Below are positions 16,332 through 22,114 of a stretch of DNA of 64,000 bases, piece by piece. The notes under the pieces were generated by a model. That model made no database searches. It had not been told where the DNA came from and worked only from the letters and a program-made list of their open reading frames with translations. A program made the position numbers and the translations under genes. The stretch lies in IMG/VR virus record IMGVR_UViG_2565956708_000007; one strand, 5' to 3'. Source of the stretch: a virus (Duplodnaviria > Heunggongvirae > Uroviricota > Caudoviricetes). How positions within the stretch are numbered: the stretch's first letter is position 1; the number at the start of each line of letters is the position of its first letter.

Positions 16332-16348
16332 AGATTTATTAGAGCAAT
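16332..16348 (-). promoter_or_regulatory. C1 operator-like site
   Basis: plus strand AGATTTATTAGAGCAAT, 16/17 to reverse-complement consensus. Confidence 0.7.
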
Positions 16349-16854
16349 TATTGTTGATGAAGAAGCGCATTTTCATACTCCCTGACCATGAATGTAAGTA
16401 CGCCGTGACTCCTGAACACACGCGCCACTTCAATCTTATCTTCCAGCGCGAACGCAATTTTACTTAGACCAATTTTCTTCAGGAGATCAATCTTTGCTGG
16501 ACCGTCATTTCTGTCATCGGTGGCAGGACGCATAGATAGCAAAGGCTCAGCCCCGTTTGTTACGTACTTCCGCAGCCAGGCTCGTGTTTTATCCCTTGCG
16601 ATCTCACAGCGCCCGGTTACAAACCAGACCGTGTAAACGTTAAATAACTGGCGCACCATATCAATAACTGGAGTTATGGGAGTATCAGTGTCACAGGCGA
16701 GATTAAACTCGTTCCAGTCCTTTGTTAATGCACCTTTACCTGGTGGCGGAAGCAAATGCAGTCTGTCTTCAGTTGCCTCTGATATTGTTCCATCAATATC
16801 AACTATGACGATATACGGACGTTCATGGTGTGCGTGTTGGTTGAAAATACTCAA
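16348..16854 (-). CDS. HAD-superfamily phosphatase-like protein (168 aa)
   Basis: VDIDGTISE motif I of HAD hydrolases; resembles polynucleotide 3'-phosphatase-type proteins. Confidence 0.5.
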   Translation of the reverse strand: MSIFNQHAHHERPYIVIVDIDGTISEATEDRLHLLPPPGKGALTKDWNEFNLACDTDTPITPVIDMVRQLFNVYTVWFVTGRCEIARDKTRAWLRKYVTNGAEPLLSMRPATDDRNDGPAKIDLLKKIGLSKIAFALEDKIEVARVFRSHGVLTFMVREYENALLHQQ

Positions 16855-16927
16855 ATGCCCTCCTCATTGGACGAAAAAAATGCTGGTGGGACGCACTCCA
16901 CCAGCATTAAAAGTGACACTGTAACTA

Positions 16928-18190
16928 TCAGCGGACGTAAATTGTGCCGCCGTTCTCTTTTTCCCATGCATCGCTACGTGCATAGCAAACATCGAGAAGT
17001 CTTCTTGCCGCTGTTTCCTCTAAACCCAATTCGACAACCAACTGCTCATGACGGCGGGTAACCACATCAAACAGGGTATGCAACCCTTTAGTTGCCAGAT
17101 CATCAATGAATTCCGGTTCGAACGGCAGCTCTGCATCTGCCAACATAACCTCTTGCGCCCACTCAACTCGACGGACCAATTCCGGGCGGCGGCTTTCCAT
17201 CTCTTTACAGATCAATTCATGGAAGAACTCTACCCAACCTTCCGGCTGGAACTCGCGGAAAATTGCCAACGGCTGGAAGTTTGGCATCAACCATTCGTTG
17301 ATTCGGATATCAATGGCATAGCCCATGTCGCAGCAGAACTGATAAGCAAAGTCCAGCTTAGAAACGATATAAGGACGCTCGTTATTGAACTCTTTAGGCG
17401 ATGAGATCCCATAAGCTAGGAGGCGCGGGAAGAAGGAGATTTGCCCTAACGTCGGATGAAGTTTGCTTGCAGGGAAACGGCGCTCAGTAATGCCATACAT
17501 TTCCTTCTTGAGCGTCGCAAATTTGGCATTCTCATTAACCAGCGCGGTAACCTCTGCTTTTTTATTAGCAAATGCCACGCGCGCTTCGCTTGCATCCTTA
17601 ATAGTTTTTTTGAGCTGTTGGTTAAGGTCGGCGACCTGCTTACGCAGTTCCTGTCGCTCGCTTTTAGCTTTGTTATAGCGTTTCTCAAGGTTAAAAGGAT
17701 CAAGTTTCATGATCTCTTTATATTGAGATTTTAGCGTTGAAATCTGTGAGTTCCGCAGTTCAACCATCGCGGTCATTTCATTGAGTTTTGTTTCCAGCTC
17801 AATGCTTATACGTTCGGCATTATCAGCACGCTGGTTGGCATCATGCGTCGCATCGTCGATCGCGTCCTGTTGCTGGCGTTTCAAATGTTCAATTTGCAGC
17901 TGAAGCTCTTCAATTTCTTTACCCTTCAGACCGAGATCCAACTGCATATTTTCAGCTGCATCTACCAGGGAGTTATGGCTATCAGCTTCTGCGTTATAAA
18001 CATCAATAAGCTGTGCGTGAAGCATCTCCGCTGACTGAACCGCATTATCAAAAAAACGTGCTGTGAGGTCATCACAACTAACGCGGCGTTGCGCGGCCCG
18101 GATGTTCTGGATAATGGCCGGGATACCGGCGTTCAGGACATCAGGGATAGATACATTTTCGATTGATTGGTTTTGTGCTGAAGTGCTCAT
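16928..18190 (-). CDS. Coiled-coil hypothetical protein (420 aa)
   Basis: long heptad-rich central region; no enzymatic motif recognised. Confidence 0.55.
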   Translation of the reverse strand: MSTSAQNQSIENVSIPDVLNAGIPAIIQNIRAAQRRVSCDDLTARFFDNAVQSAEMLHAQLIDVYNAEADSHNSLVDAAENMQLDLGLKGKEIEELQLQIEHLKRQQQDAIDDATHDANQRADNAERISIELETKLNEMTAMVELRNSQISTLKSQYKEIMKLDPFNLEKRYNKAKSERQELRKQVADLNQQLKKTIKDASEARVAFANKKAEVTALVNENAKFATLKKEMYGITERRFPASKLHPTLGQISFFPRLLAYGISSPKEFNNERPYIVSKLDFAYQFCCDMGYAIDIRINEWLMPNFQPLAIFREFQPEGWVEFFHELICKEMESRRPELVRRVEWAQEVMLADAELPFEPEFIDDLATKGLHTLFDVVTRRHEQLVVELGLEETAARRLLDVCYARSDAWEKENGGTIYVR

Positions 18191-18191
18191 T

Positions 18192-18410
18192 TCAAAGTTC
18201 CGTATTAGCTTGTGCTTCGGTCATTTTTCCTAAGTATGAAGGAGGAAGGACTACGCAATTTGTATCCAGTCCCTCACCTATGGCAGCCTGTAAAATTCTG
18301 GCTAAGGTGAGTCTCTTGTTGCGATACCTGGTGATGACATGCCTGATACCGCCGGTCGGCGTAACAAAGGCGATCAGCCAGTAGTGATATTTCCGTCGGA
18401 ATGGCCACAT
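18192..18410 (-). CDS. Small hypothetical protein (72 aa)
   Basis: ORF between coiled-coil gene and operator pair. Confidence 0.35.
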   Translation of the reverse strand: MWPFRRKYHYWLIAFVTPTGGIRHVITRYRNKRLTLARILQAAIGEGLDTNCVVLPPSYLGKMTEAQANTEL

Positions 18411-18424
18411 AGTGCACCTTATGA

Positions 18425-18441
18425 ATTGCTCTAATAAAAAA
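18425..18441 (+). promoter_or_regulatory. C1 operator-like site, left member of a divergent pair
   Basis: ATTGCTCTAATAAAAAA, 14/17. Confidence 0.55.
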
Positions 18442-20490: not shown

Positions 20491-21050
20491 TGAATTGCAC
20501 TGCTCCTACTTGCATTCAAAATATGTAAATCTGCGTGTTTTTTGCGGGTATCCAGGAACTGCTGTTGCCATTTTGAAATAGACACCTGCGTTGGATTCCG
20601 TAGGGCTTGAGGGTGCGCGCCATGCCAATGAAGGCCGTTTTGCAGAGAACAGTCATAGCCGACTAATACAACTACTTCAGCCCCTGATTCAGCAGCCAGA
20701 CTGATAGCCTGCGCGCCGCTATTTACCCCTTCCGCCGGTCCACAATATCGCCTGTACTCCAACGAAAATGATTTCGCCGCCGCCAGGTTGGCTGTCACTT
20801 TGCGGAATTTCCCTCCCGGTATGGTGGATCCGTATTGCTTCCACCATGACAAATCACCGGCGTATAAGGCATAAATGTCATCGAACATCTGCCAGGAATT
20901 GTTAACCGCGATGATTGAACAGCCAGTTTTTTCTATAGCAGCACAGTCCTCACGAGTGAGTGACGGACCGCTACCGACACAAAAAACAGTCCTAGTCGCC
21001 CTGGGTGGTATGTTCATTCTCAGCTGCAAATTCAGCCTCCAGGCGAGCAT
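20388..21050 (-). CDS. MptE/Maf-like (DUF115-like) protein, paralog 2 (likely start MNIPPRA at 21017)
   Basis: RTVFCVGSGPS...IIAVNNS; overlaps downstream paralog by about 100 bp. Confidence 0.45.
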   Translation of the reverse strand: MLAWRLNLQLRMNIPPRATRTVFCVGSGPSLTREDCAAIEKTGCSIIAVNNSWQMFDDIYALYAGDLSWWKQYGSTIPGGKFRKVTANLAAAKSFSLEYRRYCGPAEGVNSGAQAISLAAESGAEVVVLVGYDCSLQNGLHWHGAHPQALRNPTQVSISKWQQQFLDTRKKHADLHILNASRSSAIQCFPRINLEAVIALLSSAVAQAPQTLLRRAECRL

Positions 21051-21213
21051 TCATTTCAGCGATTACCGGGTCCACTACAGCATCTGCTTCCTGTTCATTA
21101 CGCGGCATGATCGATGCCAGCGATTCATAATTAGCCTTGGATGACACGATTATTCTCCCGATGTTAATGTGCGCTGTATCAAAGAACACATATGCACTAA
21201 TTAATTTATTATT

Positions 21214-21792
21214 TCACGTAGCGAACAACCACTTGTCACCGTTCAATACATGCTCAATAGCCTCACCCTTTTTAAGGCTCATGTATTCCAGGATGGCGGT
21301 TATCGCTTGTTCTGCACCATACGCAAGAACGACGTAGTAACCTTCCTCTCTAAGCCTGCGCATCCAGGCGATCTGCTCTTTCGTCGGGGCTTTACCATTT
21401 GGTTCTTTAAGCTCAATTCGCATGCCGTGATAAATACCGCATGCTTTATCGAGACTCATGTCCGGATAACCTTTTTTCTGCCCTTCAGCCTTCATTTTCC
21501 CGGCGGTTGCTTTTGAACGTTTCCCTCCGTTAGGCGTTGCATGCAACAGCTCATAGATGTCAGGGTGCTTGCGTTCGAAGTAATCAAAAATGAAAACCTG
21601 CTCGAAGTGCTCGCAATTTCCGTCGCGCAGGTCGGGGTTCTTTGCCAGTGCTGCAAGTGCCTTCGCATGTGGAGAAACTTCTTTTACCGGCGCAAGCGAT
21701 AAGAATGGATCCTTTTTGGTTTTTGGCCTGGACCGCCCCTTATTTCGACGCTCACTAAAAGCCTGAAACTCTTCCTCAGTAAAGCGCAACAT
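21214..21792 (-). CDS. VRR-NUC domain nuclease-like protein
   Basis: PD-(D/E)xK-like core with GYPD and ELK elements; 192 aa. Confidence 0.55.
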   Translation of the reverse strand: MLRFTEEEFQAFSERRNKGRSRPKTKKDPFLSLAPVKEVSPHAKALAALAKNPDLRDGNCEHFEQVFIFDYFERKHPDIYELLHATPNGGKRSKATAGKMKAEGQKKGYPDMSLDKACGIYHGMRIELKEPNGKAPTKEQIAWMRRLREEGYYVVLAYGAEQAITAILEYMSLKKGEAIEHVLNGDKWLFAT

Positions 21793-21794
21793 AA

Positions 21795-22040
21795 TCAGTC
21801 AAATCCTGCCGGTCGCATGCCATATTTACGCTGTTTTGCAGCCTGCTCTTCCCTGTGCCATTGCGCACATTCAGCGTCACAATAAATGCCTGATTCAATC
21901 GATTCATTGCAGTAACGACACTTCCCTGTAAATACCTGGCTCACGACCTGTGCCTGCTTTCTGATGTTATCGATGGCCATGTCTTTGAGAGCTTCTAACT
22001 GATTCATGCTCAGCTCTGCATCATCAACACGTTCTGCCAA
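21795..22040 (-). CDS. TraR/DksA-family C4 zinc-finger protein
   Basis: CRYCNESIESGIYCDAECAQWH four-Cys motif at C-terminus. Confidence 0.6.
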   Translation of the reverse strand: MAERVDDAELSMNQLEALKDMAIDNIRKQAQVVSQVFTGKCRYCNESIESGIYCDAECAQWHREEQAAKQRKYGMRPAGFD

Positions 22041-22097
22041 TTTTGTTTCCTCGTGAAGAACCTACTTAAGGGCAGAATGATACATTTCACAATCAAA

Positions 22098-22114
22098 ATT
22101 GCACTAATAATTTT
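22098..22114 (+). promoter_or_regulatory. C1 operator-like site in divergent intergenic region
   Basis: ATTGCACTAATAATTTT, 15/17. Confidence 0.6.

Follow-up and report, generated by a model that had tools for sequence, protein, structure and literature searches.

A predicted glycosyl-transfer module, pmgO-pmgP-pmgQ, in the C1 operator-containing pmgL-pap region of a P1/P7-like phage

The 64,000-nt stretch of viral DNA analysed here as a whole (the window; IMG/VR record IMGVR_UViG_2565956708_000007) belongs, by its sequence, to a P1/P7-like phage, and three of its genes, pmgO, pmgP and pmgQ, very probably form a glycosyl-transfer module, as judged from family assignment and modelled fold. They lie between positions 16332 and 22114, in what corresponds to the annotated pmgL-pmgM-pmgN-pmgO-pmgP-ppp-pmgQ-pmgR-pmgS-pap segment of P1 (AF234172) and P7 (AF503408). 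We give an even chance to the reading that the trio is expressed late and glycosylates one or more virion proteins, in a block that is otherwise a mosaic of C1-repressed units. The products of the other genes (Ppp, Pap, PmgM, PmgL, PmgS and the essential PmgR) are best explained as separate cargo or morphogenetic functions, not as steps of a pathway. The anatomy of the block, including its genes, operators and non-essentiality, is already published and is not new. What is new is that PmgO and PmgQ homologues are encoded next to each other, on the same strand, between capsid and connector or tail genes in many unrelated phages, and the interest lies in the function of pmgO, pmgP and pmgQ, which have long been listed as 'putative morphogenetic' genes. 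The original prediction for this region, made from the sequence, was a sugar or phosphate transfer pathway acting on DNA, virion proteins or a host target; sugar transfer on virion proteins emerged as its best-supported component, while a role on DNA is at odds with the normal restriction of knockout phages. Similarity to glycosyltransferase and MptE families was indeed detected by profile searches, and that part of the prediction withstood the refutation proposed for it.

PmgQ can be assigned with confidence, from profile comparison and the modelled structure, to the GT8 glycosyltransferases. It had been picked out as a DXD-motif, glycosyltransferase-like protein, and both profile and fold searches agree with that description. 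The DLD triplet is present in the translation as D79-L-D81, is invariant in the 27 sequences of the family alignment and aligns with the DxD of Gat1 and GlyE. The same alignment displays invariant DLDT, WWxK, GDQ, SYK and HGxPRP motifs; G148-D149-Q150, which aligns with the GDTG of Gat1, and H208-G209-x-P211-R212-P213 are invariant or nearly so, and the motif His, matched by pattern, is presumably the Mn-binding His of GT8 enzymes. A PmgQ profile searched against the PDB retrieved Gat1 (1.8e-6), GlyE and glycogenin, and the top 50 Foldseek matches of the AlphaFold2 model (predicted local distance difference test score, pLDDT, 94.5) were all GT8/GT-A enzymes with E values of 1e-8 to 1e-6, LgtC and WbbM among them. 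The GT-A fold and the DxD, GDQG-like and C-terminal H..G..[KR]P motifs are common to PmgQ and the CAZy GT8 family (glycogenin, Gat1, GlyE, LgtC), whereas PmgQ is shorter, at 233 amino acids (aa), and only 11-17% identical to the solved members. No Pfam or NCBIfam model matched PmgQ, and single-sequence searches of the PDB with PmgQ, PmgO and PmgP gave nothing significant, profiles being needed. RefSeq and PHROG already label PmgQ 'glycosyltransferase' and PmgO 'alpha-2,3-sialyltransferase'. A full HMMER scan placed 5,709 clusters at 50% identity in the PmgQ family. An orphan homologue was also found on a Pantoea metagenome contig (L167, 7001-7633), between lpd and acnB on a bacterial chromosome, with no phage context.

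PmgO and PmgP are, at the level of sequence, distant paralogues with a Maf/MptE-like fold. Their description as two GSGPS-motif paralogues was borne out by the presence of VGSGPS in both translations and by family and fold searches, which class them as MptE/Maf-like, and the overlap of their genes, put at about 100 bp, is 103 bp (20388-20490). Direct BLASTP comparison of the two proteins detects the N-terminal motif only; the two families align in hhalign with a probability of 98.1% over 161 columns, which identifies them as distant paralogues. PF01973 (MptE-like) was matched at E <= 0.01 by 31 of 33 PmgO-family and 30 of 35 PmgP-family members. The best fold match of PmgO was Maf, a protein O-glycosyltransferase; the GxGPS motif of both proteins is collinear with GNGPSL of Cst-II, and a common fold unites PmgO and PmgP with Maf, MptE and the GT42 sialyltransferases. 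The PmgP profile found no matches in the PDB, and PmgP is tied to the family through Pfam and hhalign only; SGPS, AVNG, TLD, GNSAYGA and GVD motifs were observed in its family alignment. Residues D66, S111 and D133 of PmgO and D53, S133 and D155 of PmgP are invariant. As candidate counterparts of E324/D415 of MmMaf and D272/S334/D357 of CbMaf, they come in the same order and with matching Ser-to-Asp spacing, 22 in PmgO and PmgP versus 23. The Maf enzymes, which are flagellin nonulosonic-acid O-glycosyltransferases (Magnetospirillum Maf, PDB 5mu5), measure some 600 aa (632 aa in the 5mu5 chain), whereas PmgO (220 aa) and PmgP (208 aa) do not have this multi-domain architecture and are single domains of about 200 aa with no flanking domains; by gene context, moreover, their acceptor cannot be flagellin. 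Sequence and model together suggest that PmgO and PmgP work like the Maf catalytic core, without being Maf proteins.

Most PmgO homologues start near its residue 12-20 and end near residue 200, and for this reason the true start of pmgO is possibly M12, at the ATG at 21017. Close relatives of P1 alone have the long C-terminal tail of PmgO that overlaps pmgP.

The coupling of these genes was followed in other phages. Scanning viral contigs with a PmgQ alignment first yielded near-identical P1-like loci only, and the scan was repeated with an alignment of distant PmgQ homologues, by which 80 diverse loci were recovered and analysed. A PmgO-type open reading frame (ORF) occurred in 56 of the 80, corresponding to 28 of 40 clusters at 70% identity, and it was always on the same strand as the GT8 gene, at gene position -1 in 25 cases and -2 in 20. 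The full trio was found in six or seven loci, and in two contigs (L154 and L155) the three genes directly follow one another as they are ordered in P1, with no ppp among them. Upstream neighbours, as classified by Pfam, comprised Phage_capsid 15 (+3 of other capsid families), portal 13, TerL 8 and prohead proteases; downstream were HK97-gp10 (10), tail completion (9), head completion (7), tail tube (11) and connector (6) proteins, with FkbM and other methyltransferases, sulfotransferases and a 2-oxoglutarate (2OG) oxygenase scattered among them. Two distant PmgQ homologues lie inside siphophage head modules, one of them followed directly by an MptE-like gene. Fusion proteins point the same way: 8 of 21 multidomain PmgQ-type representatives are fused to a Maf-like domain, in both orders, and others carry a rhamnosyl-O-methyltransferase-type (sugar O-methyltransferase) domain, GT9 or a second GT8 (tandem GT8-GT8). 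The GT8-Maf fusions are P0214, P0229, P0233, P0241, P0250, P0292, P0333 and P0357, and further fusion proteins are P0318, P0322 and P0266. In the cultured phage D3 (L164, 5597-8789) a PmgO-type gene, orf7, comes shortly downstream of the major head gene, with the small orf6.5 in between; GT8 is absent in D3 and in PAJU2.

A variant of this module was seen in D3, PAJU2 (L165/L168) and Klebsiella phage Eowyn (L169), in which a PmgO-type protein is accompanied by a protein of 275-296 aa and a methyltransferase, with no GT8. The N-terminus of the 275-296-aa partner reads LGDNIY..., and it is possibly GT-B-like. The PmgO-type ORF010 of PAJU2 was called 'structural protein' by its depositors.

The gene ppp is, on sequence comparison, an insertion into a conserved O-P-Q module, since it is missing between P and Q in L155 and in a P1-like plasmid of Pantoea sp. 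CCBC3-3-1 (NZ_CP034366, L166), and since phage D6 shares ppp alone of the whole block at megablast level. The Pantoea plasmid retains pmgL-M-O-P-Q-R-S and carries, shortly after pmgS (9070-9834), a kdsB gene for synthesis of the cytidine monophosphate (CMP) derivative of 3-deoxy-D-manno-oct-2-ulosonic acid (Kdo), whose product matches CTP_transf_3 at 1.7e-53 and is 47% identical to E. coli KdsB. This mosaic behaviour of ppp, the presence of several transcription units and the want of any single-knockout phenotype except that of pmgR could be taken to mean that all these genes are unrelated, individually dispensable accessory genes, with O, P and Q neighbours by descent only. For ppp, pap, pmgL, pmgM and pmgS that holds, as the explanation favoured here already states; for O, P and Q, their repeated same-strand adjacency in unrelated phages, the domain fusions and the invariant catalytic-type motifs contradict it, and as an account of the trio we judge it improbable.

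If the trio glycosylates the virion, it would be expressed once C1 is lifted, and the late promoter at the pmgL end would place its expression alongside that of the virion proteins. The three enzymes, predicted to be soluble nucleotide-sugar transferases, would then act jointly, late in infection and inside the cytoplasm. If Maf is taken as the model, an ulosonic acid would be attached to Ser or Thr by one or both of the Maf-like enzymes, after which PmgQ would add a hexose from a uridine diphosphate (UDP)-hexose, with host CMP-Kdo and UDP-hexose as donors; one or more virion proteins would come to carry a short glycan. Ser and Thr residues are O-glycosylated by Maf in the cytoplasm, and in E. 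coli Maf enzymes can draw on CMP-Kdo to transfer Kdo to them (bioRxiv 10.1101/2020.06.03.131540), enzymes of the Maf-like fold class use CMP-activated ulosonic acids (Kdo, sialic, pseudaminic and legionaminic acid), and the GT8 enzymes glycogenin, Gat1 and GlyE extend protein-linked glycans. Kdo itself as one of the donors is put forward tentatively and is, in our estimate, rather less likely than not. As to the acceptor, the homologues located between capsid and connector genes, together with the mycobacteriophage precedent, point to virion proteins, at chances that fall at or just short of even. Mycobacteriophages glycosylate capsid and tail-tube proteins with glycosyltransferases of their own, according to Freeman 2023 as cited in PMC12363180 and PMC12691614. 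From these citing accounts, the systems of Che8, Corndog and Myrna share with the relatives of the O-P-Q module both phage-encoded glycosyltransferases and a gene position in the structural cluster; they may differ in enzyme families, the hosts of O-P-Q phages are Gram-negative, and the P1 trio is not beside the capsid gene. The proposed system would be the counterpart, in phages of Gram-negative bacteria, of mycobacteriophage capsid and tail-tube glycosylation.

A number of points weigh against virion glycosylation by the trio. PF01973 scores 23.6 bits with PmgO and 21.1 bits with PmgP, below the gathering threshold of 34.6, both proteins are without the extra domains of true Maf proteins, and their fold also holds pyrophosphokinases. 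In the window the trio adjoins a tail/baseplate operon and pmgR, not a capsid gene, so that the argument from synteny is taken over from distant relatives; a gene within a structural module may also be a moron whose target is the host. Among the other loci examined and the phage collection, kdsB is linked to the block only in the Pantoea plasmid, a single instance. Literature searches returned no report of a glycan on P1 virions, and the P1 virion proteome paper makes no mention of PmgO, PmgP, PmgQ or glycopeptides. Finally, single knockouts (PMC9024508) and CRISPR interference (CRISPRi; PMC10695390) of pmgO, pmgP and pmgQ gave normal plaques, from which it follows that any modification is dispensable in the laboratory.

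The pyrophosphokinase resemblance leads to a different proposal, according to which PmgO and PmgP are MptE/thiamin-pyrophosphokinase-like diphosphokinases that form, with Ppp and Pap, a phosphate-transfer pathway on a small molecule or nucleotide. The partners that travel with these genes are glycosyltransferases and sugar methyltransferases, not phosphatases, and we hold this pathway to be quite unlikely.

The most serious rival, although we consider it unlikely, is a remodelling of the host envelope: O, P and Q would add Kdo and a hexose to the core of the lipopolysaccharide (LPS), the receptor of P1, during lytic growth, and this would spare progeny from loss on cell debris or block superinfection. 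The LPS core is where P1 adsorbs, the LPS core glycosyltransferases belong to GT8, with LgtC and WbbM among the fold matches of PmgQ, Kdo is an LPS sugar for which a relative carries kdsB, and dispensability for plaques is what receptor masking would lead one to expect. Set against these points, the top GT8 matches (Gat1, glycogenin, GlyE) are protein-directed, as is Maf, the best match of PmgO; in phages that infect many hosts, the homologues are placed between capsid and connector genes; the predicted repression in the lysogen would leave no room for lysogenic conversion; and no membrane-association signal turned up, though no search was aimed at one.

Modification of the phage DNA is the least probable of the alternatives, and we regard it as very unlikely indeed. 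Other phages do glycosylate their DNA, a probable VRR-NUC nuclease and a PNKP-type phosphatase are encoded nearby, and the enzymes might by this route protect against restriction. Single deletions of pmgL, pmgM, pmgN, pmgO, pmgP, ppp, pmgQ, pmgS and pap nevertheless plate normally and show normal EcoA, EcoB and EcoK restriction (PMC9024508 Table S3), which argues against a role in DNA modification or anti-restriction. No hydroxymethylase or other base-modifying gene is present in the operon, and elsewhere it is capsid and tail genes with which synteny is seen. DNA glucosyltransferases are not known to have a GT8 or a Maf-like fold. The one essential gene of the block in P1, pmgR, gives unjoined heads and tails when knocked out (PMC9024508). 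CRISPRi knockdown agrees with the knockouts except for pmgN (PMC10695390); knockdown of pmgN cuts plating about 100-fold, while its in-frame deletion is viable, and polarity cannot explain the conflict because the downstream genes are non-essential.

The assignment of the window rests on 19 phage records, among them RCS47, SJ46, P7, P1 and relatives, which match positions 16000-22500 at 98-99% identity and 83-100% query coverage (megablast). The block agrees gene by gene with the annotation of the pmg genes of P1 and P7 (Table 1): gene order and operator positions are identical at 98% nucleotide identity, with no material difference inside the block, whereas the operon downstream of Op88 has the P7/RCS47 arrangement and not the pmgT-U-V of P1. 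P7 names for these genes are upf81.0, upf81.2, hdmA-D with ppp, shtA/B and pap. All are on the minus strand, as had been proposed, and they number ten rather than nine, pmgN having been overlooked. Among 80 near-identical P1-like loci, 51 keep the block intact, and contig ends cut most of the others. By GC (guanine plus cytosine) composition no gene of the block, ppp included, is foreign, and PADLOC and NCBIfam searches with the block proteins found no defence system or named family besides Ppp and coiled-coil noise for PmgS.

Table 1 Genes and regulatory features of the pmgL-pap region, in window positions.
Feature	Position	Strand	Description
pmgL	21795-22040	-	Small four-Cys zinc-finger protein, DksA/TraR-like by PHROG
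pmgM	21214-21792	-	Probable VRR-NUC-type nuclease domain in C-terminal half
pmgN (P7 hdmA)	20992-21189	-	Small ORF, 65 aa here vs 51 aa in the P1 annotation; PHROG_2350
pmgO (P7 hdmB)	20388-21050	-	220 aa; Maf/MptE-like single-domain protein
pmgP (P7 hdmC)	19864-20490	-	208 aa; Maf/MptE-like single-domain protein
ppp	19190-19882	-	Lambda-type PPP-family Ser/Thr phosphatase, within the O-P-Q trio
pmgQ (P7 hdmD)	18492-19193	-	233 aa; predicted GT8-family glycosyltransferase (GT-A fold, retaining-type)
pmgR (P7 shtA)	18192-18410	-	72 aa; essential in P1
pmgS (P7 shtB)	16928-18190	-	420 aa, central coiled coil, non-essential
pap	16348-16854	-	HAD phosphatase, polynucleotide kinase/3'-phosphatase type; TTG start
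Op88/OpmgT	16332-16348	-	1 mismatch; same position as P1 OpmgT, P7 Op(hea)
Op86b	18425-18441	+	Consensus match and P1 annotation
Op86a	18474-18490	-	Overlaps -35 of P1-annotated PpmgR; consensus match and P1 annotation
Op83/Oppp	21191-21207	+	TATGCACTAATTAATTT; 4 mismatches; between pmgM and pmgN
Op82/O26	22098-22114	+	Divergent pmgL/gene 26 control region; consensus match and P1 annotation
LPpmgL/LP26	22129-22157		Predicted divergent late promoters, Lpa-dependent; positional homology to P1 annotation
Op86 hairpin	18438-18465	-	11-bp stem, 6-nt loop, then U6 on coding strand; overlaps -10 of P1-annotated PpmgR
Intrinsic-terminator-like hairpin	16879-16908	-	Strong; 11 pairs and T run; between pmgS stop and pap TTG start

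The regulation of the block was examined with the C1 operator consensus ATTGCTCTAATAAATTT, which is 17 bp long and asymmetric; with up to 3 mismatches allowed, 12 matches were found in the whole window against 0.34 expected. The four operator-like sites that had been noticed (16332-16348 (-), 18425-18441 (+), 18474-18490 (-) and 22098-22114 (+)) have one to three mismatches each and occupy P1-annotated positions. Op83, which had been missed, could be recognised solely with the help of the P1 annotation; its sequence and that of the P1 site differ at one base. The divergent operator pair and hairpin at 18425-18490 could likewise be recovered, the inverted Op86 pair flanking a hairpin with an 11-bp stem; pair and hairpin fold at -26.9 kcal/mol (z = -7.9), and the hairpin is likely to act as the terminator of the pmgN-pmgQ unit. 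The picture of a block bracketed by operators had to be given up. Op88 is found in P1 to overlap promoters that belong to the next operon (pmgT), and both Op83 and the strong 16879-16908 terminator hairpin, placed between pmgS and pap, lie inside the block. The block is thus several units and not one operon, and at least three or four transcription units are present, namely pmgL-pmgM, pmgN-pmgO-pmgP-ppp-pmgQ, pmgR-pmgS and pap. The last of these may need its own promoter or read-through. A GAGGAGG Shine-Dalgarno sequence follows the hairpin ahead of pap.

Nor do the genes make up a single pathway expressed from the prophage: by their operators they would be repressed by C1, hence silent in the prophage until induction sets off their expression, they fall into several transcription units, only O, P and Q travel together elsewhere, and ppp is absent from the trio in L155 and L166. 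For the putative promoters of the block, the predictions of the P1 record were carried over by near-identity; a generic sigma-70 promoter scan did not recover those annotated in P1. Alignment of the pmgL/gene 26 control region with P1, late promoters included, shows a single base difference. The terminator scan revealed no strong terminator upstream of the Op86 hairpin, and from this we infer that the late promoter at the pmgL end feeds into the trio. A P1 delta-hfq transcriptome preprint offered no usable timing for the block genes.

The remaining proteins of the block were compared with known families. Pap has the DIDGT motif by which it had been called a HAD phosphatase (residues 19-23), with 46.5 bits to Pfam HAD_PNKP (cutoff 27.6) and matches to PHROG polynucleotide kinase families. 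In Ppp, all the motifs cited for a lambda-type phosphatase (GDLHG, GDLIDRG, GNHE) are present; it scores 59.3 bits with Pfam Metallophos (cutoff 21.5) and matches the NinI-like PHROG at 5e-113, with a below-threshold NCBIfam resemblance to E. coli PrpA/PrpB. GDxHG, GDxxDRG and GNHE are common to Ppp, the lambda phosphatase NinI and PrpA/PrpB, and the P1 record gives 64% identity to the lambda enzyme; the difference from NinI is that ppp is here embedded in a glycosyltransferase operon. Two earlier assignments are weakly supported. For a VRR-NUC nuclease in PmgM, the Pfam VRR_NUC score (21.2 bits) stays under the cutoff of 23.8, and PHROG_5702 'Holliday junction resolvase' matches at 6e-27; for a TraR-like zinc finger in PmgL, PHROG_54 matches at 1.6e-12, there is no match to Pfam zf-dskA_traR, and the Cys spacing is atypical, CxxC-x9-CxxxC where the canonical TraR/DksA zinc finger has CxxC-x17-CxxC. 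PmgS is the 420-aa coiled-coil protein it was said to be, with its coiled coil in the centre, and matches PHROG_1660 at 1e-195 and otherwise only weak coiled-coil-type entries. PmgR and PmgN had no informative match in family and profile searches.

Beyond the block, the operon after Op88, which is pmgT in P1, consists here of genes at 15575-16153 and 14693-15571. In this operon (14693-16153) are encoded a 192-aa protein with no Pfam match and a 292-aa protein with a PAPS-reductase domain (PF01507, 7.5e-9). In other phages, too, a PAPS_reduct protein and sulfotransferases are encoded in the vicinity of PmgQ-type genes. A plus-strand terminator-like hairpin is found at 16277-16299, where the annotated genes are on the minus strand only, and an unannotated minus-strand ORF for a 44-aa hydrophobic protein (16163-16297) overlaps it. 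Eight further C1-operator matches are at 24-40, 488-504, 4762-4778, 32519-32546 (an overlapping pair), 36052-36068, 51504-51520 and 53169-53185.

The broader form of the proposal is speculative and, in our estimate, rather unlikely: P1 and the thousands of phages of Gram-negative hosts that possess the PmgO and PmgQ pair would O-glycosylate capsid or tail proteins, the Maf-like enzyme priming with an ulosonic acid (Kdo or another) and the GT8 enzyme extending, with nucleotide sugars drawn from the host only. As knockout strains exist already, the hypothesis is directly testable. If true, virion glycosylation of a widespread class not described so far would come to light, and the transducing phage most used with E. 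coli would gain a new post-translational modification. The P1 particles employed in transduction or delivery would then carry an unnoticed glycan, which could affect their stability, adsorption, aggregation or immune recognition, and the minimal Maf-like enzymes could serve as tools for protein O-glycosylation in E. coli. The two-enzyme signature would, in addition, flag virion glycosylation in very many uncultured phages (about 5,700 clusters at 50% identity).

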